From contig JAKLEA010000010.1 in the NCBI GenBank assembly GCA_022711755.1, positions 128,899-192,898 of the forward strand: DNA of 64,000 nucleotides, given 5' to 3'. The DNA is from Planctomycetota bacterium (lineage in GTDB: Bacteria > Planctomycetota > Brocadiia > SM23-32 > JAKLEA01). A program made the position numbers and the translations under genes. Numbering within the stretch: the stretch's first letter is position 1; every line of letters starts with the position of its first letter. Positions 17,434 to 60,247 of the stretch are shown here, piece by piece. The notes beneath the pieces are model-generated. The model saw only the letters and a list, made by a program, of their open reading frames with translations. It did not search any database and had not been told where the DNA came from.

Positions 17434-17505
17434 GCAATCTCCCCTCAGGGATTTTCCGCGTAAGCGGTTAATCCTTATCAGTTTTCACTTTCTTCTTTCT
17501 ACTTG

Positions 17506-35233: not shown

Positions 35234-35342
35234 GTTGTGTATCCTTTGAATCAGAGTTGTCGGTTTATCCTGCGGACGGGTCATCCGGCGCGCCGCCGGG
35301 GTTCCGTCCCTGAATTATCAAGCGCGGCGTCCGGGCCGGCAT

Positions 35343-41130: not shown

Positions 41131-41220
41131 TTCTGAGCGTCTCCAGTGGTCGGGCATTTACGATGTGACGAAACGCGGGGGCGCGCAATGCGCCCTTGCG
41201 CAGAGCATTTTCTCTCGCTG

Positions 41221-42504
41221 CTATGTGAGAGTCCAGGGGCTTCGCATGGGGCGCCCGATCAGGCGGTCGGCCTCCGGATCGTTGACGAATCTCTCCCTGC
41301 CGGGGTCCCATCGCAGCTTGCGCCCGAGCAGCATCGCCATGTTGCCCAGGTGGCAGATCGTCGCGGAGCGATGGGCGACCTCCGCAGGCGCTACAGTTTC
41401 CTTCCTTGAGCGCGCACATTCAAGAAAGTTCAGGTGATGTCCGGGACTTTTATAGAGATGCAGTTCGCCCGGCCCTATCTCGCTGCGGATCAGCGATGGC
41501 GGGTCCGGGCGCAGAACTCCACGATCCACGTAGACGCTTCCCTCCGTCCCGATGAAGAGGACGCCGTTGGGATGATGGTCGTCGCAGATCAGCATGGTCC
41601 CGTCCGCGTATGTGTATTCCACGTGGAAGTGGACGGCAGTGTTGAACAGACCTTCTTTGGGAAAATCGCCGCGCCCCTCGATCTCGACCGGCCCGGTGAG
41701 TTCCGTCCCGTTGCCCCACTGAGCGATGTCGTTATGGTGCGCGCCGAAATCGGTCATGTTCCCGCCGGAGTAGTCGAAAATGTAGCGGAATGAGCCGTGG
41801 CAGCGGGAGGGTGTGTAAGGCGCGCACGGGGCCTGCCCGAGCCACATGTCGTAATCGAATCCCGGCGGAACGGGCTGCGGTTTCTGGATTCCAGTCCTCG
41901 GGCCGGGATAAAGGCCTGTCCTGATCGTATGCAGTTTTCCGATTCTCCCGTTGCGGACAAGCTCGCAGGCGAAGCGGAATTCCCACGAGGAGCGCTGCTG
42001 GCTCCCGCACTGGAAGACGCGGCGATAACGCTTCACGGCGTCGGACATCGCGCGCCCCTCCTCGATGGTCAGGGAGAGAGGCTTCTGGCAGAAGATGTCT
42101 TTTCCGGCCTTCGCGGCCATGATGGTCGGAATGGCATGCCAGTGGTCGGGCGTGGCGATACAGACGGCGTCAATGTCCTTGCGCGCCAGCAGTTCCCGGA
42201 AATCGCGATGGACGGCGCATCCCTTGTCGCGGTAGCGAAGGTTGGTCCTTTGCGCGGCGTCCCGCGCGCGGGCGGCGTCAACGTCGCAGACCGCGACCAC
42301 GCGGCAGTCGCCGTGGCCCAGGAAGATCATCATGTCGCCCATGCCCATGTTTCCCGTGCCGATGCAGCCCATCGTGATCCGCTCGCTTGCCGGGGGGACC
42401 CCGCCCTTGCCCAGCGCGGTCGAGGTTATGACATAAGGGGCGAAGGCTGCCGAGGCGGCCGCGCGGAGGAATGTTCTGCGGGTAAGGAGGGAATGGGGCG
42501 GCAT
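41221..42504 (-). CDS. Tat-exported Gfo/Idh/MocA-like oxidoreductase (GH109-like family)
   Basis: Tat signal TRRTFLRAAASAAFA, with MGCIGTGNMGMGDM and ATPDHWHA motifs. It is about 60 % identical by eye to the adjacent paralog. Confidence 0.75.
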   Translation of the reverse strand: MPPHSLLTRRTFLRAAASAAFAPYVITSTALGKGGVPPASERITMGCIGTGNMGMGDMMIFLGHGDCRVVAVCDVDAARARDAAQRTNLRYRDKGCAVHRDFRELLARKDIDAVCIATPDHWHAIPTIMAAKAGKDIFCQKPLSLTIEEGRAMSDAVKRYRRVFQCGSQQRSSWEFRFACELVRNGRIGKLHTIRTGLYPGPRTGIQKPQPVPPGFDYDMWLGQAPCAPYTPSRCHGSFRYIFDYSGGNMTDFGAHHNDIAQWGNGTELTGPVEIEGRGDFPKEGLFNTAVHFHVEYTYADGTMLICDDHHPNGVLFIGTEGSVYVDRGVLRPDPPSLIRSEIGPGELHLYKSPGHHLNFLECARSRKETVAPAEVAHRSATICHLGNMAMLLGRKLRWDPGRERFVNDPEADRLIGRPMRSPWTLT

Positions 42505-42551
42505 GTCGCGCAAGGTTGTCCGGCGGAACTCAAGGCGAGAATCGGGAACTT

Positions 42552-43508
42552 TCAATCCTTCCCGTTGTCGTCGCCCGGATTCGTTCTGTCCGCCGGTTTC
42601 CTGTCTTCCTGTTTGCTTGTATCCTTACTTTTTCTAATGGAAACGCGGTAGAAGACATATACCAGACAGAGAACGGTCAAAGCAACGGCGGCATAGAAAA
42701 AGTCCCGCCCGGACACGGAATAGACGTGCATACTCTTAGTGGAATCCGGCAATCCGCCAGCGCCGATGAAGGTGAAAATGACTGCGCAGAAGGCCGCAAT
42801 AAGAATGGCCGACAGGATTTCCGGGCGTTTCCTCAACTTCGGGAACGCCAGCGGCAGGTGCAGGTAGATCAGGTAAGCCAGCCAGGTGATGAGGCCGAGG
42901 GTCTCCTTTGGGTCCCAGCCCCAGTAGCGCCCCCACGCGCTCTTGGCCCAGAGCGCGCCGGACGTCAGGCCGATGGTCAGAAACGGGAACCCGAAGGCGC
43001 AGAGGCGATAACACAGCCTGTCAATCGCCAGCCCGCGGGATGTCTTCAGTTCCGGTCGGGCTATCTGGACTATGGCGGAGACGAACGCCGCGCCCATCGT
43101 GCCGTAACCGACGAAATAGGCGGTGACGTGGAGGGGGAACCAGTAGCTGCGCAGGGCGGCTGGAAGCTCCCGCACCTCTGATGAAGCCCTGAAGATTGCC
43201 AGCGCCGTCATCACCGCAGCCAGCGCGCTGCCCAGCGCCCCGAGCAACTGGACGCGGAACTGAAGCAGGACCATGAAGTTTGCGAGCGTCAACATAAATG
43301 TAAAAAAGAAGAGGGACTCGTATAGTCCGGAGGCGGGGAAGTGGCCGGCCTGTCGCCATCGCATTCCGATGAAGGCTACGTTGCAGGCCAGCGCCGCCGC
43401 GCACGCGAAAGTCGCAAAGCCGGACATGGCGTCCCTGCGTCTTATGACGCCTATGGTCCAGACAACTGCGGCCAGTGCGTAGAGGGCGAAGGTCAGTTCG
43501 GCAATCAT
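42552..43508 (-). CDS. ccsA: cytochrome c-type biogenesis protein CcsA (System II heme lyase subunit)
   Basis: WWD/Trp-rich heme-handling motif WGRYWGWDPKE and a polytopic membrane topology. Confidence 0.85.
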   Translation of the reverse strand: MIAELTFALYALAAVVWTIGVIRRRDAMSGFATFACAAALACNVAFIGMRWRQAGHFPASGLYESLFFFTFMLTLANFMVLLQFRVQLLGALGSALAAVMTALAIFRASSEVRELPAALRSYWFPLHVTAYFVGYGTMGAAFVSAIVQIARPELKTSRGLAIDRLCYRLCAFGFPFLTIGLTSGALWAKSAWGRYWGWDPKETLGLITWLAYLIYLHLPLAFPKLRKRPEILSAILIAAFCAVIFTFIGAGGLPDSTKSMHVYSVSGRDFFYAAVALTVLCLVYVFYRVSIRKSKDTSKQEDRKPADRTNPGDDNGKD

Positions 43509-45667: not shown

Positions 45668-48094
45668 CTATTTCGCCTCCCGCAGAGTGATTATCGCCTC
45701 AGTCATCCTCATGCGAACGTCCGCAAGGCTTGCTGAACTGATGTTCTTTCTTGAAATCGTCTTCCTTATCGCAAGAAGTTTGTCGTGGTCTTGGCGCATC
45801 CCATTCTTCTCAGCGGACGCCAGGGCGCGCTCCAACTGCCACATGTATTCGTAGTCCTCGACGCCCTGACGCCATGCCTCCCAGCGGCGGCTGGGGATGA
45901 TCGCCTCCCGGCGCGTCGCCTCCGGCGTAGCGGACCCGGAGTCGTACACAATCGCGTAATCGTGATGCGTCCCGTCGAAATCGTCCCATGCGGAACTCGG
46001 TGTCCAGCCCGTGTCGGCATAGGCCCAGAAGCCGCAGCCGCGATACCCCTGATCGAACGCGCGCCAGAACATCAGCCTGTAATACTCCAGCGGAGAAAGA
46101 TCCTTCCCCGGACCGGAGCAGAGATACGTCCAGACGATCTTGCCCGTGTCGAAGATCAGTTTGCGGTCCGCGGGACGGTCGTCGAATCCGTTCAGGTGCG
46201 GGCACCATACATCAATGAATGGCGCAATGGCCTTGATCTCTTCAGTGGTCGCGCCGCCGGTCGGGTCGGCCCAGATTCGCAGCTTCGGGTCAATCTCCTT
46301 CATGAGCCGGCAGAGATCGCGGAAGCCCGCCTCGAGCGTCTCATCGCACGGATACATGAAGAAGCAGTCGTAACCATAGCCGAGGGATTTCATGTGCGCG
46401 ACCCAGGCATTGAGCCACTCGGCGAAATTCGCCTTCCACGCTTCGCTCATCCACGGCCCGCCGAATCTGTCGCCGCCCGGCTTTTCACCGTCCCATCCCC
46501 AGAACCACGAAATCTGATCGAACGGCTCGTGCTTCTTCAGCATCTCGTCGTGGAACGTGAAGTCCATGTCCACGCCCTTCCCTCCCTCGCGCAGCTTGAA
46601 GGATGGAACGCAGGCCGGATGCAGGACGTACACGCGCTGGTAATGCGCCTTGAGGTCCGCGATGGCGGCCTCCTGATTGTTCCTGCACGCGCCCCAGCAG
46701 TTGACATAGGCCCAACTGTAGGTGTTGACGGCGGGTTTTTCGGGGAATTGAACGGGGGCGATCTTCAGAGTCATCGTTTGCGTGACAGGCTGGGCTACGC
46801 ATTCGCCCGATATGACAAGACTCATGTCATATGTGCCCGGCTCCATCCCATGAGTCCTGAGGATCACGAACGCCTGCCTTGTGGTTCCGGGCGGGATCAG
46901 CAGGCCATTCTCATGCGGCAGCGGGAGCGCGTCGAGCGGGCGATGTCCCCCCGCCGTGTCGGACGGAACCGCAGTCCGCAACTCAGCTTGTGAAACCAGC
47001 TTTTCGTTTCCCTCCAGCTTCAGGAACAGCTTCATCTCCCCGCCCGAAGTGTTTGACAGGTTGACGGCGAGAGGCTCGTATTCGCCGATCCAAGCATAAC
47101 TCGAAACGGCCTTTCCCCGTAGTTCCATGTCGGGCGGCGCATATTCGGAGATGTTGACCATCGGGTCGCCCGCCCAGCAGACAAGGCCTTCATGATTGCA
47201 TTCCTTCGCCCACATTCCTGCGCGCGCCCTGCCGATGCGCGACGCAAGCCGCTCAACCGCTTCCGCCGATCCGACCGCCTCGTAGATTTCCTTCTCAATA
47301 GCGTCAAGCTCGGGTTTCAATTCGTCCACCTGCGAAGGCCTGCGGACGGCTGTATCGCCGCGCGCATATGCCCGCAACGCCTCAAGTTCGACAGTCAGTC
47401 GCCCCAGTTTGCGCGTTCCGGTCATGAACTGATCCGCCGATGCGAAGGTCTTCGCATCATCAAACTTCACGTTTGCGGGATCGTGATCGCCCTTCATGAC
47501 CTCGATTTCATCGGTAAAGATGAAGTCTCCGCGCGCCTGCATCCCGACCTGGACGTAGCGCCCCCGCGTCGCGAGCTTCGGCGTCCGGAACTTGTGGACG
47601 TACCAATGCCCGTCCTTGTTCTCGTACTGTTTCAGTCCCGGTTCCGAGACGGCGGCAACCTTGCGGTAGGCCTTCCCGTCGTCGCTGACTATGGCGACGA
47701 TCATGATCGGGAAAAAGACGCCGGCATGCCCGCCCCCGGCCATGTTGACGGCGACGGAGTCAATCGGCTCGACGCGCCCGAGATCAATCGAGACGGTCGC
47801 CTGCCGTCCCTGCCAGCCGACTGTGCCCGGCCAGACCCAGAAATAGGCGGATGTGAATTTCCCGTCGGTTAACTGATTCGGGTCGCCGGGATCGGTGCAG
47901 TAACGATAATTCGGGCGCGGGATGAAATCGCACTTCTTTCCAAGAGCGAGATTCACGCCCGGCTCCGGAGCGCCCTGCCGGGGAAGTTTCTCTTCCGCGC
48001 TCGCATCCGAATGGATGAAATCAGGACAGGCAATTCCGGTTACGCATAGAAACGCCAGAACTCCGACAAATCCGGCTTCAGCGGCTTTTCTCAT
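45668..48094 (-). CDS. secreted discoidin-domain + DUF4091-like putative glycoside hydrolase
   Basis: Signal peptide, an N-terminal F5/8-type-C-like segment, and C-terminal DUF4091-like motifs WTYLCSGPG and QGVEDYEYMW. It is a paralog of 21425..23959. Confidence 0.5.
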   Translation of the reverse strand: MRKAAEAGFVGVLAFLCVTGIACPDFIHSDASAEEKLPRQGAPEPGVNLALGKKCDFIPRPNYRYCTDPGDPNQLTDGKFTSAYFWVWPGTVGWQGRQATVSIDLGRVEPIDSVAVNMAGGGHAGVFFPIMIVAIVSDDGKAYRKVAAVSEPGLKQYENKDGHWYVHKFRTPKLATRGRYVQVGMQARGDFIFTDEIEVMKGDHDPANVKFDDAKTFASADQFMTGTRKLGRLTVELEALRAYARGDTAVRRPSQVDELKPELDAIEKEIYEAVGSAEAVERLASRIGRARAGMWAKECNHEGLVCWAGDPMVNISEYAPPDMELRGKAVSSYAWIGEYEPLAVNLSNTSGGEMKLFLKLEGNEKLVSQAELRTAVPSDTAGGHRPLDALPLPHENGLLIPPGTTRQAFVILRTHGMEPGTYDMSLVISGECVAQPVTQTMTLKIAPVQFPEKPAVNTYSWAYVNCWGACRNNQEAAIADLKAHYQRVYVLHPACVPSFKLREGGKGVDMDFTFHDEMLKKHEPFDQISWFWGWDGEKPGGDRFGGPWMSEAWKANFAEWLNAWVAHMKSLGYGYDCFFMYPCDETLEAGFRDLCRLMKEIDPKLRIWADPTGGATTEEIKAIAPFIDVWCPHLNGFDDRPADRKLIFDTGKIVWTYLCSGPGKDLSPLEYYRLMFWRAFDQGYRGCGFWAYADTGWTPSSAWDDFDGTHHDYAIVYDSGSATPEATRREAIIPSRRWEAWRQGVEDYEYMWQLERALASAEKNGMRQDHDKLLAIRKTISRKNISSASLADVRMRMTEAIITLREAK

Positions 48095-48387
48095 TTCGCC
48101 TTTCTCCCGATCCTGTCGCTATTGTTGATGAAGGCCGGCGGGCGCGACCAATCCTTAATTTACACAGCGAAATGATAACCGCTACCGCCTTCCGACTTCC
48201 AGAGAGCGCGGCAAGATGGCGAATCGGCGCCCCGGGGCAAACACAATCTTATTATACTGATGCCAGCGCAAGAATGACGCAGTCCTGGCACGTTACGCGC
48301 CCGAAAGAATGATTTGCGTTTGTTCAGTATAGCCTTATGGCGCGAACATCAGTAATCGCCCCGCGCGCCTGCGGCGACCTGCCCGAC

Positions 48388-49437
48388 CTACTCTTCCGGC
48401 TTGATCTCCTCGACGGGTTCTTCAGCCTTTTCGTCCTTCTTGTCCTTTTCGTTTTCAGCAGCCTTCTCCCCGTCCGGCTTCTCATCCTTCTTATCTTCTG
48501 CCTTGGCGGGCGGCTTCCCCTTGTCCCCGCCCTTGTCCGCCCCGGCCTCGCCTGAGCCGGTCCATTCCATCCGCTTGATCTTCGGCTCCGGCTCGGCCTT
48601 CTTGTCACCCCCCTTTTCAGACGGCTTCAGCGCCTCGCCCGGCTTCTCCCCCCCCTCTTTCTTCGCGGGTTCCTTCGCCGGTTCGGTCTTCTGCCCCGGT
48701 CCATGCTTCGGCTGGCGTCCCGCAAGTATCCGTTTCACATCGGACGGATCGTATCCCTGCTTTCTTAAATTCCAATATCGCGTGAAGCGCATCGGCTCCC
48801 CGCCGGTGGCGCGGTAGGACTCCATTATCTCCTTTGACTCGAATCCCTCCTTGCGAAGGTTCCAGTAATCCACAACCTTCTCGGAGTTCAAGCCGGCCAT
48901 CTGGAACGAGAACATTATCTCGCGATGATCGTATTCTTTGTGCAGCTCCAGGTATTTCTCGATCCTGTCCGGCTTCTCCCCCCAGAGCGCGAAAACCTCG
49001 TCCAGCTTCCGGTCCAGTTCCCCGAGCTTCCTGAGGTCGGGCTTCTCCTCCTTCAGAACTTCCTCGGCCTCGGCCATGACGGCGTCAACGTACATGGCGA
49101 CGGCTTCCTTTTCCCGCGCCGCGCGCCACGCCGGAATGATGAACTCCACGATCTGCGGCCGCTTCTGGCGGTCCAGGTCCTGCCGGTAGTCAATGAAAAG
49201 ATTTATCAGGTCGCGGTTGCCCTTGGACAGTTCCTTGACGGCGTCGTATTCCCGAACCGGCCACTGGTTCATCGCAAAAAGATTGCGGTACTCCTCGTCC
49301 TCGGAGTTTGTGATCCGGGTCTGGAGTTCGTTCTTGTATTTCTCGATGATCGCCCGCCTGTCCCCGGCAGAAGCCGTTTCGGAAGCGATAAGAATCATCG
49401 CCGCGCACAAGGCGCATATCGCCGCAATAGGTTTCAT
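48388..49437 (-). CDS. secreted hypothetical protein with a Lys/Glu-rich low-complexity C-terminal tail
   Basis: Signal peptide MKPIAAICALCAAMILIASETASA. The C-terminal ~130 aa are dominated by K, E, P, G and A (KKEGGEKPGEALKPSEKGGDKK...). Confidence 0.55.
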   Translation of the reverse strand: MKPIAAICALCAAMILIASETASAGDRRAIIEKYKNELQTRITNSEDEEYRNLFAMNQWPVREYDAVKELSKGNRDLINLFIDYRQDLDRQKRPQIVEFIIPAWRAAREKEAVAMYVDAVMAEAEEVLKEEKPDLRKLGELDRKLDEVFALWGEKPDRIEKYLELHKEYDHREIMFSFQMAGLNSEKVVDYWNLRKEGFESKEIMESYRATGGEPMRFTRYWNLRKQGYDPSDVKRILAGRQPKHGPGQKTEPAKEPAKKEGGEKPGEALKPSEKGGDKKAEPEPKIKRMEWTGSGEAGADKGGDKGKPPAKAEDKKDEKPDGEKAAENEKDKKDEKAEEPVEEIKPEE

Positions 49438-49552
49438 GTGAATGTCCTCCGCCGCGCCCGACAGCACGGGGTGTTTTTTACTGATGTCATTATAGAACAA
49501 CGCATGGCAGAACCGCAATGCCGGCTCAGATTGCGGCATCATCCCGCGCGGC

Positions 49553-50191
49553 TCACTCCGCCGGGCCTGAAACCAGCCTCTCCTCCCGCGGCGCGCCCCC
49601 TTCCGGCAACTCCCCCGACACAAGTTCCGCCCCCATTCGCCGCGCCGCCTCCATCGCCGCCCCGTGCTTCAGAATGTCGCCCTTCGCGTCAACCCTGTTG
49701 ACGTATAGGCTGAGGGCGTGGCGCATCTCCAGCGCGTCGAAGAAATACTTCATCGTCAGCGTCACGGAATCGAACATGAGCCTGCTTTTCGAACCGCCAA
49801 CCGCGATGACCATGCCCCGGCGATCCCGCGCCCCGTCAGGAAAGAGCGGCTGTTTGAGCACGTATCTGCGCGCCCACAGACACTGACAACGGTCAATCAT
49901 CAGCTTGCCCTGCGCGCAGACGCCCATGAAGAATACGGGCGTGGCGAAAATAAGTCTGTCGCTCTCGATCAGTTTGCCGAAGATTTCCTGATAGTCGTCG
50001 TCCAGCCTGCACTTGCCCAGCCCGTAGCAGGCGTTGCATTCCAGGCACGGGCCGATGCTCATGCCCGGCAGCCAGATATATTCCGTCTCCGCCCCGGCGC
50101 TCGCGGCCCCTTCCAGCGCCAGCTTCAGCAGCGTGTCGCTGTTGCCGTCCCTGCGCGGGCCTGACGAAATGCCCAGGACTTTCTTGTTCAT
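49553..50191 (-). CDS. NADPH-dependent FMN reductase-like flavoprotein (iron-sulfur flavoprotein family)
   Basis: KVLGISSGPRRDGNS flavodoxin-like N-terminus, and a CxxCxxC-like cluster (CLECNACYGLGKC). Confidence 0.7.
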   Translation of the reverse strand: MNKKVLGISSGPRRDGNSDTLLKLALEGAASAGAETEYIWLPGMSIGPCLECNACYGLGKCRLDDDYQEIFGKLIESDRLIFATPVFFMGVCAQGKLMIDRCQCLWARRYVLKQPLFPDGARDRRGMVIAVGGSKSRLMFDSVTLTMKYFFDALEMRHALSLYVNRVDAKGDILKHGAAMEAARRMGAELVSGELPEGGAPREERLVSGPAE

Positions 50192-50277
50192 GGCAAACCT
50201 TCCAAATCCCTCGCGCGTCCACCTAATGTCACGCCTTCATTATTACCCTTTCCCCATCGTCCAGTCCAGCGCTCCGC

Positions 50278-52653
50278 ATGAACATCCGCCGCATGGCCAT
50301 TGCCGTATGCCGCGACGCGGGCTATGCTGTAAGTTCAAAGGAAACCCGATCCGTGACCCCAACAGGCAATAACCAATCGCGCCGGGAACTTATGGCCTCC
50401 GTCCGCGACCACTGCGCGGGCCGGCGGACGGGCTGGCTGCAAATCCTGCGCGAAATCGGCGAATACTACGCCGAGGGATTCTACCGCGCCGAATTCGCCG
50501 GCAAGCCCCTCCCGATGCGTTTCGCCGAGGCCATATCCAATACCTACCGCAACATGCCTGTCGAGGTTCCGGAGAAAGGACTCCTTATCCCGCGCCAACC
50601 ATTCGGCAACCCGGACGGCGAACCCTGGCGCGGGGGGGGCATGATTCTCCACTGGCAGCACTCCGCCGGCCCCGTCCTAGCCCCCCGCGAGGTTGTCGCC
50701 GCGCGGAAAACGCTCTTCCCGGAATATGCCGAGTTCATTGACATGTGGCTTGAGGAATGGTCCCGGCGCCGCTACGCATTCGGCGGCTACACGCACAGCA
50801 ATCCGGATTATCCGACCGTTCTCGCAAAGGGCCTCCTCGGAATGAGGGCCGAACTCCTCGAACGCAGCGCCGCAGCGCGCCGCGACGAGCCGGACAATCG
50901 CCCAAAGCTGGACCTCTATGACGCCCTCATCGTCTACGTCGAGGGCGTCGAGGCATGGCATCGGCGTCAGGTCGCCGCCGTTGAGAGAGCCGCCTCTTCC
51001 TGCGCAAATCCCGCCCGAAAGTCTGAGTTGGAACGGTTGATCCCGGAACTGCGACGCTCCCTGCTCCATCCCGCAGAATCCTTTTATCAGGCCGTCCTGA
51101 CCGCGCACTGGGTCTGGCTCCTCGATCCGGCGGATAACTACGGCCATCTCGATCAGTATCTCGAATCCTTCTGGCGCGCGGACATGGAATCCGGCAGAAC
51201 CGACCGGCGCATGACCGAGGGGCTGCTGGACGAGGTTTTCGACAACATGAACCGCGTCGGCGGGTGGAACGTCGCCATCGGCGGGACGCGTCCGGACGGC
51301 TCCGTCGCCGACAATCCGCTGACGATTGAGTGCATCCGTTCCGTCTGCCGCGTGAGGCAGTTGCGCCCCAATCTCGCGCTGCGGGTAAGTTCAAAAACCG
51401 ACGACAGCCTGCTCGTCGAAGCGTTGAAATGCGTCCGCCTCGGGACCGGCAGACCGGCGCTCTACAACGACGATCTCTACATCAAATCGTTGATGGACTC
51501 CGGCCTCGGCCTGGCCATCGAAGACGCGCGGGATTACGCCTTCGGCGGCTGCACGGAGACCATGATCCCCGGCAGGAGCAACTGCGGCTCGCTGGACGGG
51601 GAGCTGAACCTTGCCCAGTGCCTCGAAAGGGCGCTCTGGAACGGACGGGGGCTTGCCGACGGCAGCGGCGGCGTCAACTGCTGGAGGCAGGCCGGCGGCG
51701 GGCCGACAACTGGCTTTCTCTACGACCATGCAAGCTTCGACGACCTGCTTGCCGCCTTCCGCCGCCAGGTGGATTTCGCCACCGATCAGGTTGTCGCATG
51801 GCTCTGGAACGAACACTCCCAGCGTCCTCACAGCGGCGATCCGAAGCTTGCGCGCACCTTCTTCACAAGCGACTGTGTCCGCAGCGGGCTGGGCTTCGAG
51901 GCCGGCGGCGCGCGCTACAACTGGAGCGTCATCACCTATCACGGCATCGCCAATGCCGCTGACAGCCTGATCGCCGTCAGGGAACTCGTCTATGAGAAGA
52001 AGGAGATTTCCGCGCGGCAATTGTTGGACGCGCTGAAGGCCGATTTCGAGGGGCATGAAGACCTGCGGTGGCGCATTCAGAAAGTCCGGCGCTTCGGCAA
52101 CGACGACCCCGTCGCCGACGACGTGGCGCGGGACGTTGCGGAATACGCCTGGAAGCGATTGCGCGAGCATGTTCCCTTCCGCGGCGGGCGCTATCTGCCC
52201 AGCGTCATCCTCTTCGCCACCTACGACGCCGCCGGGCGCAACGTCGGCGCGCTGCCGGACGGGCGCAAAAGCGCCGCGCCGCTGGTGGACTCCGTCGGCC
52301 CATTCGCAGGGCGGGACGTCAACGGCCCCACCGCCATGCTCAACTCCGTCGCCCGGCTTCCGCTCCATCTCGCCGTGGGGACGCCGATACTCAATATGCG
52401 CCTTGCCCCGAAAATCATGGAATCGGATGACGACCTTCGCAAGATCGCCGCCATGATCCGCGCTTTCTTCATCCAGGGCGGAATGCAGATTCAGTTCACC
52501 GTCGTTGACCCCGGCATGCTCCGCCGTGCGCAGGCGAAGCCCGAGGAATTCCGCGACCTCGTCATCCGCATCGGCGGCTACAGCGAATATTTCGTCCGCC
52601 TGAGCCGGGAGCTTCAGGACTCCGTCATCGCCCGCACGGAACACGGCTCCTGA
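50278..52653 (+). CDS. glycyl radical enzyme, PFL2/glycerol-dehydratase-like family. The start is uncertain, and the Met at 50392 is possible.
   Basis: C-terminal glycyl radical motif RIGGYSEYFVRLSRELQDSVIARTEHGS, and a mid-protein Cys loop FGGCTETMIPG. The length of about 790 aa fits the family. Confidence 0.75.
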   Translation: MNIRRMAIAVCRDAGYAVSSKETRSVTPTGNNQSRRELMASVRDHCAGRRTGWLQILREIGEYYAEGFYRAEFAGKPLPMRFAEAISNTYRNMPVEVPEKGLLIPRQPFGNPDGEPWRGGGMILHWQHSAGPVLAPREVVAARKTLFPEYAEFIDMWLEEWSRRRYAFGGYTHSNPDYPTVLAKGLLGMRAELLERSAAARRDEPDNRPKLDLYDALIVYVEGVEAWHRRQVAAVERAASSCANPARKSELERLIPELRRSLLHPAESFYQAVLTAHWVWLLDPADNYGHLDQYLESFWRADMESGRTDRRMTEGLLDEVFDNMNRVGGWNVAIGGTRPDGSVADNPLTIECIRSVCRVRQLRPNLALRVSSKTDDSLLVEALKCVRLGTGRPALYNDDLYIKSLMDSGLGLAIEDARDYAFGGCTETMIPGRSNCGSLDGELNLAQCLERALWNGRGLADGSGGVNCWRQAGGGPTTGFLYDHASFDDLLAAFRRQVDFATDQVVAWLWNEHSQRPHSGDPKLARTFFTSDCVRSGLGFEAGGARYNWSVITYHGIANAADSLIAVRELVYEKKEISARQLLDALKADFEGHEDLRWRIQKVRRFGNDDPVADDVARDVAEYAWKRLREHVPFRGGRYLPSVILFATYDAAGRNVGALPDGRKSAAPLVDSVGPFAGRDVNGPTAMLNSVARLPLHLAVGTPILNMRLAPKIMESDDDLRKIAAMIRAFFIQGGMQIQFTVVDPGMLRRAQAKPEEFRDLVIRIGGYSEYFVRLSRELQDSVIARTEHGS

Positions 52654-52761
52654 GATCGGCGCATCTCATCGCCGCGCGAGAGATCCGAACTTCATCCTGC
52701 ATGATTCCCCTCGACGCGATATAATGCCCCCCTGCCGACAACCCTGCTGGAGGAAACGCCG

Positions 52762-54135
52762 ATGCCGCTGAAATTCGATGTCGTCGCGGAGGAAATCATC
52801 GGGACGTTCGAGAACCCGGACAACGGCTCCGGGCCGATGTGGTGCTACGGCTCTCCCACCATCGTCCGGAACAACGACCGCGTCTTCGCCGCGATTCCGG
52901 AAACGGACAAGGACGCGAAGCCCCTTTGCAACACGCGACGCCGCATCTTTTGCCGGGGCGCGGACGGCAAGTGGGAGCTTGTCTACCGCGCGGATAAGAC
53001 GGACGAGCGCGAGCCGTGCCCTCTCGTGACGCTGCCCGGCGGACGCCTCATCATGTCCGTCAACCCCGCCGTAAGCCCCCGCCCGGCATGGGGGGACGGC
53101 AGAATCCCCCACAACTGCCGGCCGCACCTGCTCGAGTTCAGCGTCCTGGACCCGAAGCAGCCCCCGTCGCAATCCATGCCCGTCTGGGCGAAGGAATACG
53201 AGTTCACGGAGCATTCCTACCGCGGCGTCGCCGCCGATCATCACACCGGCGAAATCCTCCTCCTGAACGTCATCGGCTATGACGGGCAGACCTGGACGAT
53301 GCGCGACTCGGCGGGCCAGTGGGTCAAGCAGGGCTACGTCGGCTTCCCGCTGCGCGGCGCGTATCCGCACCTGGCCCTGCGCAAGGGCGCGGCCTTCATG
53401 ATGGCCGTCAGCGACGTCGTCGAGCCTAACGTCGAGTGGCGCGCGCACAAGCGCAAGGTCACGGGCCAGGAGTGGGATTACGACTTCCGACAGCTCTACT
53501 TCACCTGGACCCCGGACATCCGCGAGCATGAGTTCTCCCCCCCCCTGACCGTCGCCAGCCGGGACGAGACCTGCGGATCAATCCGCAACATGGACATGTG
53601 GATCGCCCCCGACGGCGCGGCGCACCTGGTCTACATTGACCGCAACGTCTGGCACAAGTTCATCCGCGACGAGTTCTTCCCCGGCGTGCCGATCTCCGCC
53701 GAGTTGAAATACTGCGTGATCGAAAAGGGCAAGGTCATACTCCGCCGCACCATTGCGCGAAGCATCGAGGGCATGTTCGACGAAGGCAAGCCCCGCCCGA
53801 CGCCGACGGACATCCCGGACTCGAAGGTCCCCCTGCTTGGCTTCGGCCCCGGTTATGCCGCCCTGCATGCCACCGCCGACGACCGGCTCATCCTCCTCTG
53901 CCACGCCGGATGTAGCGACCCGAAGCAACCCGGCGCCGGCGGCGTCTACGCGATGCAACTGCATCCCGCCGCTGAAGACGCGCCGGTCAAGCTCGACATG
54001 AAGTTCCCTCTCGGCTCCTTCTTCACGGCGACCGTCCGGAACGGTACGATGCCCTCGGACACGATTGACCTCTACGGCCACGGCCCGGAACCGAACACGA
54101 TCCGCTACGCGCAGATCAAGGTGACGCAGCAATAG
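52762..54135 (+). CDS. hypothetical protein (457 aa), no recognisable family
   Basis: A long ORF preceded by GGAGGAAACGCCGATG. No signal peptide or known motif recognised. Confidence 0.5.
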   Translation: MPLKFDVVAEEIIGTFENPDNGSGPMWCYGSPTIVRNNDRVFAAIPETDKDAKPLCNTRRRIFCRGADGKWELVYRADKTDEREPCPLVTLPGGRLIMSVNPAVSPRPAWGDGRIPHNCRPHLLEFSVLDPKQPPSQSMPVWAKEYEFTEHSYRGVAADHHTGEILLLNVIGYDGQTWTMRDSAGQWVKQGYVGFPLRGAYPHLALRKGAAFMMAVSDVVEPNVEWRAHKRKVTGQEWDYDFRQLYFTWTPDIREHEFSPPLTVASRDETCGSIRNMDMWIAPDGAAHLVYIDRNVWHKFIRDEFFPGVPISAELKYCVIEKGKVILRRTIARSIEGMFDEGKPRPTPTDIPDSKVPLLGFGPGYAALHATADDRLILLCHAGCSDPKQPGAGGVYAMQLHPAAEDAPVKLDMKFPLGSFFTATVRNGTMPSDTIDLYGHGPEPNTIRYAQIKVTQQ

Positions 54136-54143
54136 GCCAAAAC

Positions 54144-54195
54144 GGGGACGCTACCCTATTTTGCGGAGAAAATAGGGTAGCGTCCCCATTTTGGG
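54144..54195. terminator. perfect 19-bp stem hairpin with flanking A/T runs (bidirectional terminator)
   Basis: ggggacgctaccctatttt-gcggag-aaaatagggtagcgtcccc followed by attttggg. It starts 9 nt after the 54135 stop. Confidence 0.6.
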
Positions 54196-54209
54196 AAAGG
54201 ACACCCGCC

Positions 54210-55469
54210 ATGCCACCCATGAAGAACCCCGGTAAACTCGCAAAGGACGGCGGAAAACCCGTCAGGACCGCCCCCTGGCCCGCAAGGATTCAGATCGGCA
54301 ACCCCGAAATCAAGGCCGTGACGGCGATGCTTGAGCGCTGCCGCGACCACGGCGGCGCGTTCGACCGCTATGGCGGCGTCGAGGTTGACGCCTACGAGAA
54401 GGAATTTGCCAAAGCCTACGGATGCAGGTTCGCAACCTCGGCAAGCTCAGGCACCGCGGCCATACACGCCGCCCTCGGCGCGCTCCAGCTCGACGCCGGT
54501 TCCGAGGTCATCACAAACTCGATCACGGACACGGGAGCCGTCGCCCCCATCATCTGGAACAACTGCATCCCCGTCTTCGCCGACCACGACCCGGAGACCT
54601 TCCAGATATCGCCCGCCTCGGTGGAGTCCCTCATCACGGACAAGACCCGCGCGATCATCTGCGCCCACATCGCCGGTTGCCCGTGCGATCTTGACGCAAT
54701 CTGCCGTATCGGGAAAAAGGCCGGAATCCCGGTCATCGAGGACTGCGCCCAGGCGCACGGCGCGCGCTGGGCCGGCAGGCCCGTCGGCTCGATCGGCGTC
54801 ATGGGCGCCTTCAGCCTCATGAGCGGCAAGCACACCACCGCCGGCGGGCAGGGCGGCATGGTGACGACCAACGACGAGGCGCTCTACTGGAACGCCAAGC
54901 GCTTCGCCGACCGCGGCAAGCCCTTCAACAGCGACGCCGGCTCCAACCTCTTCCTCGGCCTGAACTACCGCATGACGGAGCTTGAGGCAGCGATAGGGCG
55001 CGTCCAGCTCGCCCGGACGCAGAAAATCGCGGACGCCCGCCGCAAGGTCGTCGCCGGGATCGAGGAGCGCATCGCGGACCTGAAGGCCGTCAGCGTCGTG
55101 AAACGCTACAGGAAGGCCGAGCCGTCCTACTGGTTCCTCCTGATCGCGGTTGACGAAAGCAGGCTCAAAGTGACAAAGGCCGACTTCGCCGCCGCGATGA
55201 GGGCGGAGGGCATACCGTGCGGGGCGGACTACAACGCCGTCGTCTACAAGCAGCGCTGGATCACGGAGCGCCGCGTCTACGGCAACACGGGCTGCCCGTG
55301 GGACTGCCCGCTCTACGGACGGAGGATTTCATACGAGAACATAAACCCCGGCGTGGACGAGGCGGTGAAGCGCCACATGATGATAAGCGTCCACGAGTGC
55401 ATGAAATCGCGCGAGTCGCGCGACATCGCCGCCGCGCTCAGAAAGGTCGAGGCCGCGTATCTGCGTTAA
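54210..55469 (+). CDS. DegT/DnrJ/EryC1/StrS family PLP-dependent sugar aminotransferase
   Basis: DegT-type motifs (FEKEFAKAYG..ATSASSGTAA, IIEDCAQAHGA, SGKHTTAGGQGGMV with the catalytic K). Confidence 0.85.
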   Translation: MPPMKNPGKLAKDGGKPVRTAPWPARIQIGNPEIKAVTAMLERCRDHGGAFDRYGGVEVDAYEKEFAKAYGCRFATSASSGTAAIHAALGALQLDAGSEVITNSITDTGAVAPIIWNNCIPVFADHDPETFQISPASVESLITDKTRAIICAHIAGCPCDLDAICRIGKKAGIPVIEDCAQAHGARWAGRPVGSIGVMGAFSLMSGKHTTAGGQGGMVTTNDEALYWNAKRFADRGKPFNSDAGSNLFLGLNYRMTELEAAIGRVQLARTQKIADARRKVVAGIEERIADLKAVSVVKRYRKAEPSYWFLLIAVDESRLKVTKADFAAAMRAEGIPCGADYNAVVYKQRWITERRVYGNTGCPWDCPLYGRRISYENINPGVDEAVKRHMMISVHECMKSRESRDIAAALRKVEAAYLR

Positions 55470-55517
55470 TCCCCCCCCCCACGCAGACATCGCCTCGGCG
55501 CGGGGATGGGAGGCGGA

Positions 55518-56861
55518 TCACAATCGCCAGGGGCTGCGCATCGCGCGATTGAGCATCCGCGACGCCTCTTCATCCCCTAAAATAGTCTCTTTGACCGGGT
55601 CCCAACGGATCTTGCGCCCCGCGCGTATGGCGATGTCGCTTAGGTGGCTGATGGAGTCGGAACGCACGGCGACGTCTATCGTGCAGACGGTCGGAGAGCG
55701 GCTTTTAACGCAGTCCAGCAGGTTCTGGCCGTGGTTGGCGCTGTCGTAAAGCCGCGTCTCCTCCGGCCCGATAGTGGAATGGAGCAGTTGCGGAGGATCG
55801 GCGTAAAGCCCGCCGCGGTCAACGCTGATCCAGCCCTCTGAACCTATGAATGTCGTGCCGTGCCCCTCGAATCGGCGATAGGCGGCGACAACGGGTTGGG
55901 CGACATTTGCGCTCATGAACCGCATACGAAGACCGTCGGCGTATGCGCACCAGACGTCCCACTCCAGGGCCGTATCATAAAGCCCCTCGTTCGGGAACGT
56001 CCCTTGCCCCTCATATTCCACCGGGCCGGTATTTTCCGTATCGCTGCCCCAGAGGGCGATATCGAGCGGGTGGGATCCCCAGCCGGCGATATAGCCCAGG
56101 GCGTAGTCGGAGATGAAGTAGGCGCCCAGATTGGTGCAGCGGTCCGTGGTATAGGGCGCTTCCGGCGCGGGGCCGAGCCAGAGGTCATAATCGAAGCCCT
56201 CCGGAACCGGCGCGGGCGCGACGGAGCCGCCCGCGCTGCCGCCCGGCGCCCAGACGTGCATCGTGTGCAGCCTGCCGATGCGGCCGTTGCGCACAAGTTC
56301 GCAGGCCTGCCGGAAATGAAACTGCGAGCGCTGCTGAGTACCATACTGGAAGACCGTGCCGTAGCGGGCGCACGTCTCGCGCAGAGCCATGTCCTGGGCC
56401 AGGGTCAGCCCCAGCGGCTTCTCGACGTAGATGTCCTTCCCGGCCTTCGCCGCCAGCATCGCGGCGGGAACGTGCCAGTGGTCGGGCGTGGCGATGATGA
56501 CGGCATCAATGTCCGTCCGGGCCAGCATTTCCCTCAGGTCGTTGTAGACGGCGCAGCCCTTGTAGACGCCGCCGGCCTTGTCGCGGGCATAGTGGGACTC
56601 GATTTCCGCCGCGCGCTCATCCCGGCGCGACATCCTGGGATCGCACACGGCGACAGACTGGGCGCCCGGCAGGTTCAGGAAGCCTCTGAGCAATCCGGAT
56701 CCCTGATTTCCCACGCCGATGTGACCGAGCGTTATCCGCTCCCCGGCGGGAGGGGTTAGGGCATCCCCGAGCGCCTTAGACGTGATCACGTGGCGGGCTG
56801 ATACGATCCCCGCGCCCTTTGCGAGGACATTCTTCAACAGGCGGCGTCGCGTGAGATTCAT
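55518..56861 (-). CDS. Tat-exported Gfo/Idh/MocA-like oxidoreductase (third paralog)
   Basis: Tat-like N-terminus TRRRLLKNVLAKGAG, with GHIGVGNQGSG and ATPDHWHV motifs. Its C-terminal half matches the 39851/41221 paralogs (RSPWRL end). Confidence 0.75.
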   Translation of the reverse strand: MNLTRRRLLKNVLAKGAGIVSARHVITSKALGDALTPPAGERITLGHIGVGNQGSGLLRGFLNLPGAQSVAVCDPRMSRRDERAAEIESHYARDKAGGVYKGCAVYNDLREMLARTDIDAVIIATPDHWHVPAAMLAAKAGKDIYVEKPLGLTLAQDMALRETCARYGTVFQYGTQQRSQFHFRQACELVRNGRIGRLHTMHVWAPGGSAGGSVAPAPVPEGFDYDLWLGPAPEAPYTTDRCTNLGAYFISDYALGYIAGWGSHPLDIALWGSDTENTGPVEYEGQGTFPNEGLYDTALEWDVWCAYADGLRMRFMSANVAQPVVAAYRRFEGHGTTFIGSEGWISVDRGGLYADPPQLLHSTIGPEETRLYDSANHGQNLLDCVKSRSPTVCTIDVAVRSDSISHLSDIAIRAGRKIRWDPVKETILGDEEASRMLNRAMRSPWRL

Positions 56862-59800
56862 GGCTTTGTCCGCTCCAGCAAGCTTGTTGCGGAAAGGCGC
56901 AACCCGTCGGAAGTCAAAACGGCGGGATCAGCCGCATCGCCCGTCTGCGTCTTGGCCTCATTAAGAAACTCGTCCATGTTGTATGTTCCGAACTCCTGGA
57001 TGCACGGACTTGGACCGTAGCGTCCGAAGATTCTCAGCTCGACGGTCGAGCAGCGCGCCGTGGGGAAGAAAAGCGCAAACTCACGGTTCTCATAATGCGC
57101 ATCCGTGATTGTGGCGACAACATTCCCGTCGCAGATCACGTCGAAGTCCCTGGGCGCGTAGTTCGGCGGTTGCTGTCCCATCTGGATGTGGCACAGGATC
57201 GTAATCGCATTGACGTCCGTTGGTTGCTTGTATGTGATTCGGTAGCGATAGAGATTGAGGTTGTCAGTTTCATCCCAGTATGTGACCGGATTGCCGTCAA
57301 TGCCTGCCTGATCCGGGCCGGACGCGCCGTCGGTGTCAATGCCGTCGGGGCTGTCTGCGGCGGCGGCAAGCGAAAGGTTCGTCGGTTTCTCGCGGCGCAG
57401 AAGAGCCTCGGCGGCGGCCTTGCGCGCCGATGGCGCTGCGGCCGCGGCAAAAGCCTTCCGAAGCGCGGCCCTGGCATCCTCCGGAGTTATGGACGGGCAT
57501 GCGGACGCGATCCGGGCCACTGCCAGGGCGGCCTCGTCGGTCAACTCCGGATCGCTTATGCAGTCTGCCGCAAGTTGCAGCGTTACCTGCGACGGGGCAT
57601 TGGCGATTCCGCCCAACAGGGCCTTCTTGTCGGCGGCAAGCGATGCGATTCCCATAGCCTCGGCGAACAGTTTCGCAGTCTCCTCCTGCGGGCGTTCTCC
57701 GGTCCTTCCCGCCAACTGGGCGACGCCACGAAGCGCCAGCGCCTTCAAGGCGGGATCGTTGCAGGAGCGCGCGAAGTCCAGCAGATCGGTCATCGGCGCA
57801 GAATCAGACCAGTCCCCCAGCGCTCGCGCGGCCGCCGCGCGGACTGCTTCATCCCCATCCTTGAGCGACTCGCGCGCCGCCGCCAATGCCTTCCCTCCTC
57901 CTATGCCGCACAGCGCCCGCAACAGTGAAGCTCGAACACCGGGGTCCTTGTCGGGCAGCGCCTTCAGGATCGGTTCCGCAGCCGCGTCCGGCTCGCCTGA
58001 CTTCCTGCAGATCGCGGCCAGCGAATTCTCGATGTTTCTCCGCTCGCTGTCGTTGGGCGTGTTATGGAGGAGACTCAGGAGTTCCGGAATCGCGGATGCG
58101 TCGCCCAGCGCGCCCGCCGCGCGCAGCGCCTCCCTGCGGACGTTCGGGTCCCGGCTCTTTGCCATCCTGAGCGCGTCCGGCATCGCGGATGCCGCCCCTC
58201 GCTCGGCCAGGGCGATAAGCAACTCGCACTGGACCGCGGATTCGGACGCTTCCAGCAACCTGGCCATCTCGGCGTCCGCCTCCCTGTCCGGCAGTCGAAT
58301 CAGGCTTCTGCGAGCCAATCGCGTTTCAGCGTTGCCCTTCGCCGCCGCGAGCCGGGCCAGCAGCGCCACGCATGAAGCGTCGCCCGATTGCCCAAGCGCC
58401 CTGATCGCCGCCTTTCTGACATCGGGGTGATCGCTCTCCGCGGCGACGGCGATCGCCGACAGGCTCGCGCTGTCCCCATGGACTGCAAGGGCATCTATCA
58501 CGCCCAACTGCAACGATGGGGGACATAGGGGCATTTCCGCCGCCAGGGCGCGGACCAGGCCGGCGTCAGGCGCGTCTCGGGCGCACCGCAACGCAGCCGT
58601 CCGGAACGCCGGATCGCCATCCCGCAGAGCGGCCAGAATCCGTTCGCTCGATTTCTCCGGCTCACAAGCTATCAGGCCGGGAAATGCCGCTGTGCGGATG
58701 TGCCTCGGTTTCTCCGCCGCCGACATCTCACGGTAGATTGCCAGGGCTTCGGCAATTTTGCCTGCCCTCCGAAGAGCGTCCGCGCAACACAAAAGCGCGT
58801 TGTCGCACAACGGCTGGAGCTTGCCGGGAACGGCGCAACGTCTCAATGCGTCGGTCGCCGCCGGATTTGCGATCCTGCCCAGGGCGTCAATTGCGGCCCC
58901 GGCGACGATCGGATCGGGATCGTTGAGGCGTTCCGAGATGGCGGGAACGGCAGTCTCGTCACGTCGCGCGCCGAGGCTGTTGATGACCCCCGCAAGCAGC
59001 GATCCCTGAAGCCTGCCGAGCGCTCCCCGCAGCGTGGCTGACGCCTCTTCCCCGGGAATCCTTTCAAGCGACTGGCGGGCGTAAAATGAAAGATCCTTAT
59101 CCTCAAGCAGCGGAAGGAGCGCGGGGATATCCTCCGGAGATCCGATCAGGGACAACTGCCTGCAGACGAACTTCTTGCATTCCAGCGTCGCGCCTGAGTT
59201 CAGCAGGGCGACCATTCCCCCGCGCAGACGTTTGCGCAGCCCAGGGCAGGTTTCCGCGCCGTGAGTCAGCGTCTCGACAAGAATAAGCGCATCGCGATTC
59301 TGTCCGAACTGATAACCGGCGATGGCCTTCAACGCCGAATCCGCGTCCACAGCCGCAAGCTCCCCCGCCTGGGCGGTCTCCGGCCAATTTTCGGCCGGGG
59401 GTATCGTGGCCATGCCCGTCGCCGCCCATTCCGCCGACCGGCAAAGGATCGTCTGCCATGCCGGATTGCGCATCGCGTTGGCGTCGTGGCCCAAAACGAT
59501 GTCCGCGCATCGCCCCTTACCGAAGGATGTTGTGAGCAGAACCGGCTCCAGGTTTCCCGTCCCGCCCTTGTCGGCGTAGGATAATGCGGCGCACAGAACA
59601 TTGGCGGCGGGCTGGACCGGGACGCGATGCCACAGTTCATCGGTAATCCAGAAATCCCTAAGCCCCCGGGTCACGGGATGATTGGCATCCGAAATGGAGA
59701 CGGGAAACGTGTTTATGCTGCCGTGGCCGGTATCCTTGCCCCATGTCGTACATACGATCTGCTGGAATTCCGGCCAATTCTGGAAGGTGGCGGTCGCCGC

Positions 59801-60247
59801 GTGGATGACCACCAGCCCGCCGCCCTCCCGCATGTAATCCAGAAACGCCTGTTCCAGCGCCGGGGGCCAGATTCTATCGTTCACGTTCGGAAAATTGGTC
59901 CAGTTGCTGACAATCACGTCGTAGCGCGGCAGCATGGCGGGATCCATCTTCTCAGGTTGCTCTGTCACATCCACGGAGAATCGTCCGACGGCCTCCAGTT
60001 CCGCCTTCACCACTGGAGTGGTGGAGCGCCAGTCGTGGTTGTTGGCCCCGCTCAGCAGCAAGACCCGGATGACGGGTTTCCCGGCCTCGCTCTTCGCGTT
60101 CGGCTGAGCCGAGGCGAGGGGTGGGGCGACGTCGGCGCATTGTTGCGCACATCCCATAAGCGCCAGCAGCAATGCCCCCGGAAGAGGCATCCATCGGATG
60201 ACGTTGTGCGCATTTCGCATTGGCTTCATGTCCGTATTTCCCATCAA
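56858..60247 (-). CDS. large lipoprotein: ThuA-like N-terminal domain + HEAT repeats + C-terminal F5/8 type C (discoidin) domain
   Basis: Lipobox LMGCAQ. N-terminus VIRVLLLSGANNHDW...GGGLVVIHAATATF is ThuA-like. The central region has HEAT/PBS-like repeats sharing the CKKFVCRQL motif with the 36612 gene. The C-terminus GNPVTYWDE..NAITILC...RIFG is discoidin-like. Confidence 0.65.
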   Translation of the reverse strand: MMGNTDMKPMRNAHNVIRWMPLPGALLLALMGCAQQCADVAPPLASAQPNAKSEAGKPVIRVLLLSGANNHDWRSTTPVVKAELEAVGRFSVDVTEQPEKMDPAMLPRYDVIVSNWTNFPNVNDRIWPPALEQAFLDYMREGGGLVVIHAATATFQNWPEFQQIVCTTWGKDTGHGSINTFPVSISDANHPVTRGLRDFWITDELWHRVPVQPAANVLCAALSYADKGGTGNLEPVLLTTSFGKGRCADIVLGHDANAMRNPAWQTILCRSAEWAATGMATIPPAENWPETAQAGELAAVDADSALKAIAGYQFGQNRDALILVETLTHGAETCPGLRKRLRGGMVALLNSGATLECKKFVCRQLSLIGSPEDIPALLPLLEDKDLSFYARQSLERIPGEEASATLRGALGRLQGSLLAGVINSLGARRDETAVPAISERLNDPDPIVAGAAIDALGRIANPAATDALRRCAVPGKLQPLCDNALLCCADALRRAGKIAEALAIYREMSAAEKPRHIRTAAFPGLIACEPEKSSERILAALRDGDPAFRTAALRCARDAPDAGLVRALAAEMPLCPPSLQLGVIDALAVHGDSASLSAIAVAAESDHPDVRKAAIRALGQSGDASCVALLARLAAAKGNAETRLARRSLIRLPDREADAEMARLLEASESAVQCELLIALAERGAASAMPDALRMAKSRDPNVRREALRAAGALGDASAIPELLSLLHNTPNDSERRNIENSLAAICRKSGEPDAAAEPILKALPDKDPGVRASLLRALCGIGGGKALAAARESLKDGDEAVRAAAARALGDWSDSAPMTDLLDFARSCNDPALKALALRGVAQLAGRTGERPQEETAKLFAEAMGIASLAADKKALLGGIANAPSQVTLQLAADCISDPELTDEAALAVARIASACPSITPEDARAALRKAFAAAAAPSARKAAAEALLRREKPTNLSLAAAADSPDGIDTDGASGPDQAGIDGNPVTYWDETDNLNLYRYRITYKQPTDVNAITILCHIQMGQQPPNYAPRDFDVICDGNVVATITDAHYENREFALFFPTARCSTVELRIFGRYGPSPCIQEFGTYNMDEFLNEAKTQTGDAADPAVLTSDGLRLSATSLLERTKP

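Follow-up and report, generated by a model that had tools for sequence, protein, structure and literature searches.

How is a glycyl radical enzyme (GRE) activated, and on what does it act, when no activase gene stands beside its own? This question is raised by a GRE gene in a 64,000-nucleotide stretch of DNA from a Planctomycetota bacterium (contig JAKLEA010000010.1; the whole stretch is referred to here as the window). The initial annotation of the window treated the gene as an exceptional orphan, on the premise that GREs are almost always encoded beside their activase. Entire GRE clades are still without annotation or known function (PMC13450708). On the evidence of its sequence, the window GRE is a member of one large uncharacterised clade, here called the FGGCTETM clade, in glycan-degrading anaerobes, and in this clade a missing adjacent activase is the rule and not an anomaly. 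We consider it quite probable that the gene encodes a functional enzyme of the Cys-x-Glu (CxE) class, present as a dispersed copy with its activase elsewhere in the genome, which would cleave a C-O bond of a sugar-derived substrate by radical chemistry. The gene and its catalytic positions are as follows.

50278..52653, + strand: open reading frame (ORF) of 791 aa encoding the GRE, with Pfam PFL-like and Gly_radical domains; assigned by sequence to the uncharacterised FGGCTETM clade and the CxE class.
50794..50796, + strand: His173, equivalent of His164 of glycerol dehydratase (GD), the proposed general acid.
51541..51561, + strand: Cys loop F422-G-G-C425-T-E427-T428, with the thiyl-radical cysteine and the CxE glutamate.
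52567..52593, + strand: Gly loop R764-I-G-G767-Y-S-E-Y-F772, the glycyl radical site by homology.

A Pfam scan of the product matched PFL-like (PF02901; E = 4.9e-96) and Gly_radical (PF01228; E = 3.1e-24), and the sequence contains VIRIGGYSEYF, with Gly767, and FGGCTETM, with Cys425 and Glu427. The Pfam matches, these motifs and the CxE glutamate bear out the initial description of the protein as a GRE of the PFL2/dehydratase type with a GGCTE Cys loop and a RIGGYS motif. In the alignment to GD, C425 and E427 correspond to C433 and E435, H173 to H164 and G767 to G763. The ORF is intact and both catalytic loops are present. The AlphaFold2 (AF2) model of the GRE had a pLDDT of 85.9, with values below 60 across residues 1-50, and a Foldseek search with this model gave template modelling (TM) scores of 0.78-0.80 to all solved PFL2-type GREs. 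Further, the identical protein was found on seven contigs from several samples.

The start of the 791-aa ORF appears to have been set too far upstream, because homologues begin to align only at about residue 54, the NCBI gene call is 766 aa long, pLDDT is low across residues 1-50 and an AAGGAA sequence lies upstream of the GTG at 50353. The first 38-53 residues (25-38 when counted to the alternative starts) are probably not translated, and translation probably begins at GTG 50353 or ATG 50392. We also considered a new N-terminal domain and rejected it; the family profile reaches GD from residue 38, and the extra residues most likely reflect the mis-called start.

When species-representative genomes were scanned, at least 262 relatives of the GRE were detected, and a protein search returned more than 300 relatives with 41-49% identity and a length of ~732 aa. 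We examined the genomic context of 80 related loci from among the 262 relatives. These loci came from Lentisphaerota/Victivallales (including the cultured Oligosphaera ethanolica), Armatimonadota, Planctomycetota, Chloroflexota and other taxa. An alignment of 29 sequences, the window GRE included, contained more than 100 invariant columns, among them F422, G423, G424, C425, T426, E427, T428 and M429 of the Cys loop and the pair T172-H173. In the Gly loop, R764, G766, G767, S769, E770 and F772 were invariant (R-x-G-G-x-S-E), and RIGGYSEY or RVGGYSEY was present in 50 of the 90 full-length copies in related loci. A literature search, partly poorly designed, found no paper on the FGGCTETM clade.

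The GRE reached no curated NCBIfam family cut-off. It scored 379.1 bits against TIGR01774 (PFL2/glycerol dehydratase subfamily; cut-off, 678.2), and the equivalogs for CutC, HypD, HpfG/HpsG, the indoleacetate and hydroxyphenylacetate decarboxylases and PFL gave 87-327 bits against cut-offs of 994-1150. Firm clustering with a characterised GRE such as CutC or HypD, an outcome contemplated in the initial annotation, was thus not found, all of these equivalogs and TIGR01774 being far under cut-off.

As a side observation, some clade members lie in metagenome-assembled genomes (MAGs) assigned to Capsulimonadaceae and to Gemmatimonadaceae/Gemmatimonadetes (loci L022, L056 and L073). Cultured Capsulimonadaceae and Gemmatimonadetes are aerobes, which is odd with an oxygen-sensitive enzyme.

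We searched for an activase gene across ~75 kb, comprising the 64-kb window, 7.2 kb to its left and 3.9 kb to its right, where the contig ends. A hidden Markov model (HMM) built from 120 GRE activases and run on the six-frame translation found no GRE activase in this span (best match, E = 1.2). As a control, the same HMM recovered all 16 activases in the related loci, together with two weak matches to other radical-SAM proteins. Among six-frame ORFs of at least 60 aa in the window, the CxxxCxxC motif occurred only twice, at 16127 and 30644, both distant from the GRE; the carriers are short stop-to-stop ORFs of 147 and 73 aa, and we judged these motifs to be spurious. No Radical_SAM domain was found in Pfam scans of 29 of the larger ORFs of the window, and none of the other ORFs (among them several on the left side and that at 41221-43508) had a radical-SAM match among precomputed Pfam matches, the only ones used for them. 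Further, no radical-SAM protein is encoded in the 7.2 kb to the left or the 3.9 kb to the right. The motif scan, the activase HMM and the Pfam results therefore confirm the earlier claim that the window holds no radical-SAM activase, and the flanks show that none lies immediately outside it. P0243, the best activase candidate by source pattern, came from other samples and was rejected.

Across the clade, an activase lay within reach of the GRE in 16 of the 80 related loci. Where each flank extended for 5 kb or more, 7 of 32 loci had one, and where it extended for 9 kb or more, 3 of 17. The premise that an orphan GRE is exceptional does not hold in this clade. Where an activase is present, it is canonical, ~305 aa long, with the sequence RTTVFLKGCPLxCxWCHNPE and ferredoxin-like domains, and the distance to the GRE is usually 3-100 bp. 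In P0004, the closest homologue with usable context (49% identity), the gene order is GRE-AE-GRE-AMMECR1-GH2-GH35/42-PfkB (AE, activating enzyme; GH, glycoside hydrolase), and the canonical activase overlaps the 3' end of the GRE gene. In the MAG GCA_002068325.1, the clade GRE lies on MVZH01000047 without a reachable activase, and an activase is encoded on MVZH01000257.

In five loci of Victivallales/Lentisphaerae (L020, L010, L006, L008 and L050), a row of two to four GRE genes is followed by a single activase gene. Judging by their Cys loops (GGCTE, STCVE and VGCYE), the arrays mix CxE subfamilies. Three of them have the following coordinates within their loci.

L020, 7897-18352: GRE array.
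L010, 9995-17807: GRE array.
L006, 10043-15680: GRE array.

An IclR gene precedes each of these three arrays, and in L020 and L010 an Fe-alcohol dehydrogenase gene does so too; L020 has, in addition, genes for an FGGY kinase and aldolases. The arrangement suggests that one activase serves several distinct GREs. Activase specificity has been linked to the Gly-loop sequence, and the activation of TdcE by PflA in Escherichia coli is a precedent for an activase that is not a neighbour (PMC13450708). The window GRE would resemble E. coli TdcE and GrcA in depending, as a radical protein, on an activase from another locus, which in their case is PflA, with cross-activation between proteins of identical Gly loops (PMC13450708). 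Unlike the window GRE, TdcE and GrcA are formate-lyase-type proteins whose partner activase is known.

A related observation concerns loci L092-L096, which are of Planctomycetota type. In these loci (for example L092, 4450-8918), a 750-aa GRE is encoded together with an activase and a separate 105-aa protein, which consists of a Gly_radical domain only and so resembles the spare part GrcA.

Among solved enzymes, the window GRE was most similar to the diol dehydratases. The GRE-family profile scored 447 bits against GD, which was covered over 38-786, 415 bits against the GRM3 1,2-propanediol dehydratase (PD) and 412 bits against PD, and identity to GD was 31.4% over 608 aligned residues. The best Foldseek matches by E-value were also diol dehydratases (9rco, 1r8w and 5i2g), of which 9RCO is the GRM3 1,2-propanediol dehydratase (PMC12756279). 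Like GD of Clostridium butyricum (PDB 1R8W) and the PDs (5I2A/5I2G and 9RCO), the window GRE is predicted to adopt the full-length GRE fold (TM ~0.78-0.79); these enzymes are its best sequence and profile matches, the Gly loop, the Cys-x-Glu motif and the equivalent of His164 are kept, and the activases of its clade relatives are of the same ferredoxin-domain type. In contrast, identity to them is ~26-31%, the Cys loop reads GGCTETM here and GCVEP there, there is no microcompartment or 1,3-propanediol context, and most clade copies are without an adjoining activase. Further, compared with GD and other GRE subfamilies, the clade has two loop deletions, the loop at S282 of GD being shortened by six residues and that at Y339 by four.

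The CxE motif is a hallmark of GRE 1,2-eliminases and isomerases, and GD His164 has been proposed to act as the acid, protonating the hydroxyl that leaves (PMC13450708). From the corresponding residues we infer that the window GRE belongs to the 1,2-eliminase/isomerase class and cleaves a C-O bond. This class also includes YbiW and PflD (PDB 8ID7 and 8ID0), GRE isomerases that act on sugar phosphates, cleaving the ring of 1,5-anhydroglucitol/mannitol-6-phosphate in "anhydroglycolysis" (PMC13450708). Here the likeness extends to a relative of the window GRE, in locus L020, which is accompanied by genes for a sugar kinase, aldolases and an Fe-alcohol dehydrogenase, a set that fits the cleave-then-aldolase logic downstream of YbiW/PflD. 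Unlike the case of YbiW/PflD, the window copy is without those partner genes; identity is ~26%, and the GRE scored 287 bits against NF007437 (cut-off, 1109).

If the window GRE works as its residues suggest, a radical-SAM activase encoded elsewhere would abstract a hydrogen from Gly767, and the resulting glycyl radical would generate a thiyl radical on Cys425. The thiyl radical would in turn abstract hydrogen from a carbohydrate-derived substrate, at a carbinol carbon. Glu427 would deprotonate the carbinol hydroxyl and His173 would protonate the neighbouring oxygen leaving group. The net result would be dehydration or ring C-O cleavage, giving a carbonyl product.

A sugar-derived substrate larger than glycerol is suggested because the CxE/His set is combined with shortened active-site loops and because carbohydrate genes lie near relatives of the GRE. 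Carbohydrate genes are the partners where relatives form evident operons with an activase. In L020, these are an Fe-alcohol dehydrogenase, a class II aldolase, a DeoC-like aldolase, an FGGY sugar kinase and IclR. L071 has an HpcH-type aldolase, a 2-hydroxyacid dehydrogenase and a UxuA-like dehydratase, and L050 has GntR and an aldehyde dehydrogenase. Other activase-linked relatives have GH2, GH16, GH4 and GH35/42 genes alongside. The initial annotation had proposed a sugar or sugar-derivative dehydratase/lyase, and the CxE motif, His173 and the carbohydrate genes of the relatives make a carbohydrate-derived substrate plausible. Our best inference is that the GRE dehydrates or ring-opens a sugar-derived substrate that exceeds glycerol in size, cleaving a C-O bond by radical chemistry with a logic like that of GD/PD or YbiW/PflD. 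The substrate may differ among the paralogues of the clade. More tentatively, and with somewhat less than even confidence, we propose that the FGGCTETM clade represents a new functional type of GRE, in which radical C-O (or other) cleavage would act on a carbohydrate-derived substrate larger than C2-C3 diols and one activase would serve several GRE subfamilies, including scattered copies.

Several points weigh against the interpretation of the window GRE as an active, remotely activated C-O-cleaving enzyme. First, residues S282 and Y339 of GD fall in the two loop deletions, D447 is replaced by L439 and Y640 by I644. These four residues are contacts of GD with its substrate (glycerol); since they are lost or replaced, chemistry taken from GD holds at the class level only. 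Second, the window GRE is a deep branch, with 43-49% identity to clade members (mean among the others, 59%). Third, the neighbourhoods of the relatives are heterogeneous, and the clade may therefore cover several substrates, with no single pathway transferable to the window copy. Fourth, when the Brocadiia-type activase of locus L038 was used as a query, none of the 120 listed matches was labelled Brocadiia. Activation by an activase encoded elsewhere is the likeliest and simplest explanation.

We then weighed this interpretation against the surroundings of the gene, which contain the following features.

48388..49542, - strand: hypothetical protein of 384 aa; its gene follows that of the flavoprotein after 10 bp, on the same strand.
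49553..50191, - strand: iron-sulfur flavoprotein of the ISF type, divergent from the GRE gene; Pfam FMN_red (PF03358), E = 4e-18.
52762..54135, + strand: 457-aa protein, a seven-bladed beta-propeller as predicted by AF2 and Foldseek.
54137..54194, no strand assigned: near-perfect 25-bp hairpin followed by UUUU; it directly follows the 457-aa stop codon and precedes the DegT gene.
54210..55469, + strand: sugar aminotransferase of the DegT/DnrJ/EryC1 family, dependent on pyridoxal phosphate; Pfam DegT_DnrJ_EryC1, E = 6e-78.

The alternative that these surroundings raise is a new pathway devoted to an unusual sugar or amino sugar, made up of the GRE, the propeller and DegT and with the flavoprotein acting as reductant, in which the GRE would be activated in a non-canonical way. 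The genes for the GRE, the 457-aa protein and DegT share a strand and are separated by 108 and 74 bp, and all the neighbours are carbohydrate- or redox-related. Further, glycan-processing genes abound in the window (GH123, five GFO/IDH/MocA oxidoreductases, ThuA and 3-keto-disaccharide-hydrolase domains). The spacer between the GRE and 457-aa genes had no significant structure, so that co-transcription is possible, and these two genes may form one transcript. The hairpin that follows the 457-aa gene has a minimum free energy of -46.3 kcal/mol (z = -6.7; none of 200 shuffles folded as well). Its arms are unique in the window, and with the U and A tracts that flank it, it is terminator-like on both strands. 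A consensus terminator scan found none on the + strand and missed the hairpin at 54137-54194, which has four U's only; an Rfam scan of 48000-56000 gave only a generic hairpin match to miRNA models, well under gathering thresholds. Thus, at most the GRE and the propeller share a transcript, and the hairpin splits that unit from DegT.

The neighbours do not travel with the GRE, which argues against such a pathway. When nine window proteins were compared with the 80 related loci by tblastn, the 457-aa protein, DegT and the 384-aa protein were absent from all of them, and the flavoprotein had two weak matches only (30% identity), 2.5 kb from the GRE in L014 and ~6 kb from it in L021. Clustering and Pfam analysis of the immediate neighbours across the clade yielded activases (12), IclR (10), AraC (5) and URO-D-like proteins (4), with 2-hydroxyacid dehydrogenases, enolase-superfamily proteins and sulfatases scattered further, and no conserved partner was found across the 80 loci. 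The relatives in the clade, moreover, use canonical activases. With its neighbours unshared and a hairpin standing before DegT, a dedicated pathway is unlikely, and the flavoprotein, the propeller and DegT are better regarded as unrelated or loosely related carbohydrate genes. The initial annotation was correct in placing an Fe-S flavoprotein, a hypothetical protein and DegT around the GRE, but their use as a clue to the substrate finds no support in the 80 loci or in the position of the hairpin.

The individual neighbours were characterised as follows. The flavoprotein has an FMN_red/flavodoxin-like fold and the cysteines C49-x2-C52-x2-C55-x5-C61; the compact motif of ISF is CX2CX2CX5-7C (PMC3164229), and by fold and cysteine motif the predicted product fits the ISF family. 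DegT scored under the cut-off of every NCBIfam equivalog, and the 384-aa protein had no Pfam, NCBIfam or PDB sequence match.

The 457-aa protein had no Pfam or NCBIfam match and had been called unclassifiable, with the suggestion that its structure be predicted. The prediction, once run, gave a confident seven-bladed propeller (pLDDT, 91.7; pTM, 0.92). Foldseek matched the model to 7esk (E = 7.4e-12), 5muk (4e-9) and 5uam (7.6e-8), with TM ~0.55 and identities of 10-12%. The modelled fold resembles those of the polysaccharide lyase (PL) family PL42 rhamnose-glucuronate lyase, GH145 and the PL25 ulvan lyase. The family of this protein comprises 781 clusters at E <= 1e-3 and is without a Pfam model; H151-S152-Y153-R154, R198 and Y201 are invariant in it. 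These residues could form a His/Tyr lyase-type site. Homologues occur in unrelated contexts, a further point against a dedicated pathway: two such contexts contained neither a GRE nor DegT, that of L091 being carbohydrate-related and that of L089 uninformative apart from a ThuA gene. Some members of the family are fused to other domains, one of them to a GH29 fucosidase domain.

A second alternative is that the window GRE is a stranded copy in a genome without a compatible activase, catalytically silent and either decaying or kept for a non-radical role. This would account for the lack of an activase in the ~75 kb around the gene and for the fact that none of the 120 best relatives of the Brocadiia-type activase could be attributed to the source genome; the window GRE is also the most divergent sequence in the alignment. 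Against this, the ORF of the GRE is intact and keeps all the invariant columns of the clade, including the Cys loop, the Gly loop and His173, the protein recurs unchanged on the seven contigs, its model folds confidently, and unlinked activases are usual in the clade. We therefore regard a stranded copy as very unlikely. The least probable alternative is a sequence-diverged diol/glycerol dehydratase, that is, an orthologue of GD/PD. In its favour, the GRE is matched best by GD and PD in both sequence and structure and keeps their Cys, Glu and His; against it, identity is only 26-31%, TIGR01774 gives 379 against 678 bits, the S282 and Y339 loops are six and four residues shorter, D447 and Y640 are replaced by Leu and Ile, and the window has no microcompartment shell genes or DhaT-type context.

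Other features of the window were noted apart from the GRE. GFO/IDH/MocA, ThuA, 3-keto-disaccharide-hydrolase (DUF1080) and HEAT-repeat genes are dense at 25736-27262, 33863-36341, 39851-42555 and 55518-60247. GH123 is encoded at 21425-23959, and genes for a multihaem cytochrome c and ResB/CcsA are nearby. These genes suggest an oxidative 3-keto-glycoside route linked to cytochromes. The 808-aa protein encoded at 45668-48094 matched no Pfam family above threshold; it had a weak match (E = 2.3e-6) to the beta-N-acetylgalactosaminidase 8K2J and a sub-threshold match to F5/8 type C, and it is probably another glycosidase. The dnaA gene is located at 13464-14948, and the cumulative GC skew has its minimum next to this gene, at 16-18 kb; the 14000-18000 region may therefore contain the chromosomal origin.

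The reading that survives best is that of a functional CxE-class GRE served by an activase encoded elsewhere, and the value of the locus is that of a pointer to a clade rather than of an anomaly: its orphan status is typical of the clade and its neighbours make up no pathway. GREs do difficult anaerobic chemistry, and whole clades of them are without known function (PMC13450708). Characterised GREs are mostly those of gut Firmicutes and Proteobacteria, and the gene described here points to a sizeable clade, so far unstudied, among polysaccharide degraders from the environment (Lentisphaerota, Planctomycetota, Armatimonadota and Chloroflexota). Within this clade, the multi-GRE arrays with a single activase would lend themselves naturally to tests of activase promiscuity, a subject that the field has scarcely studied. 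Further, if the substrate of the clade is a sugar derivative, these enzymes would represent an extra radical step in anaerobic glycan catabolism.

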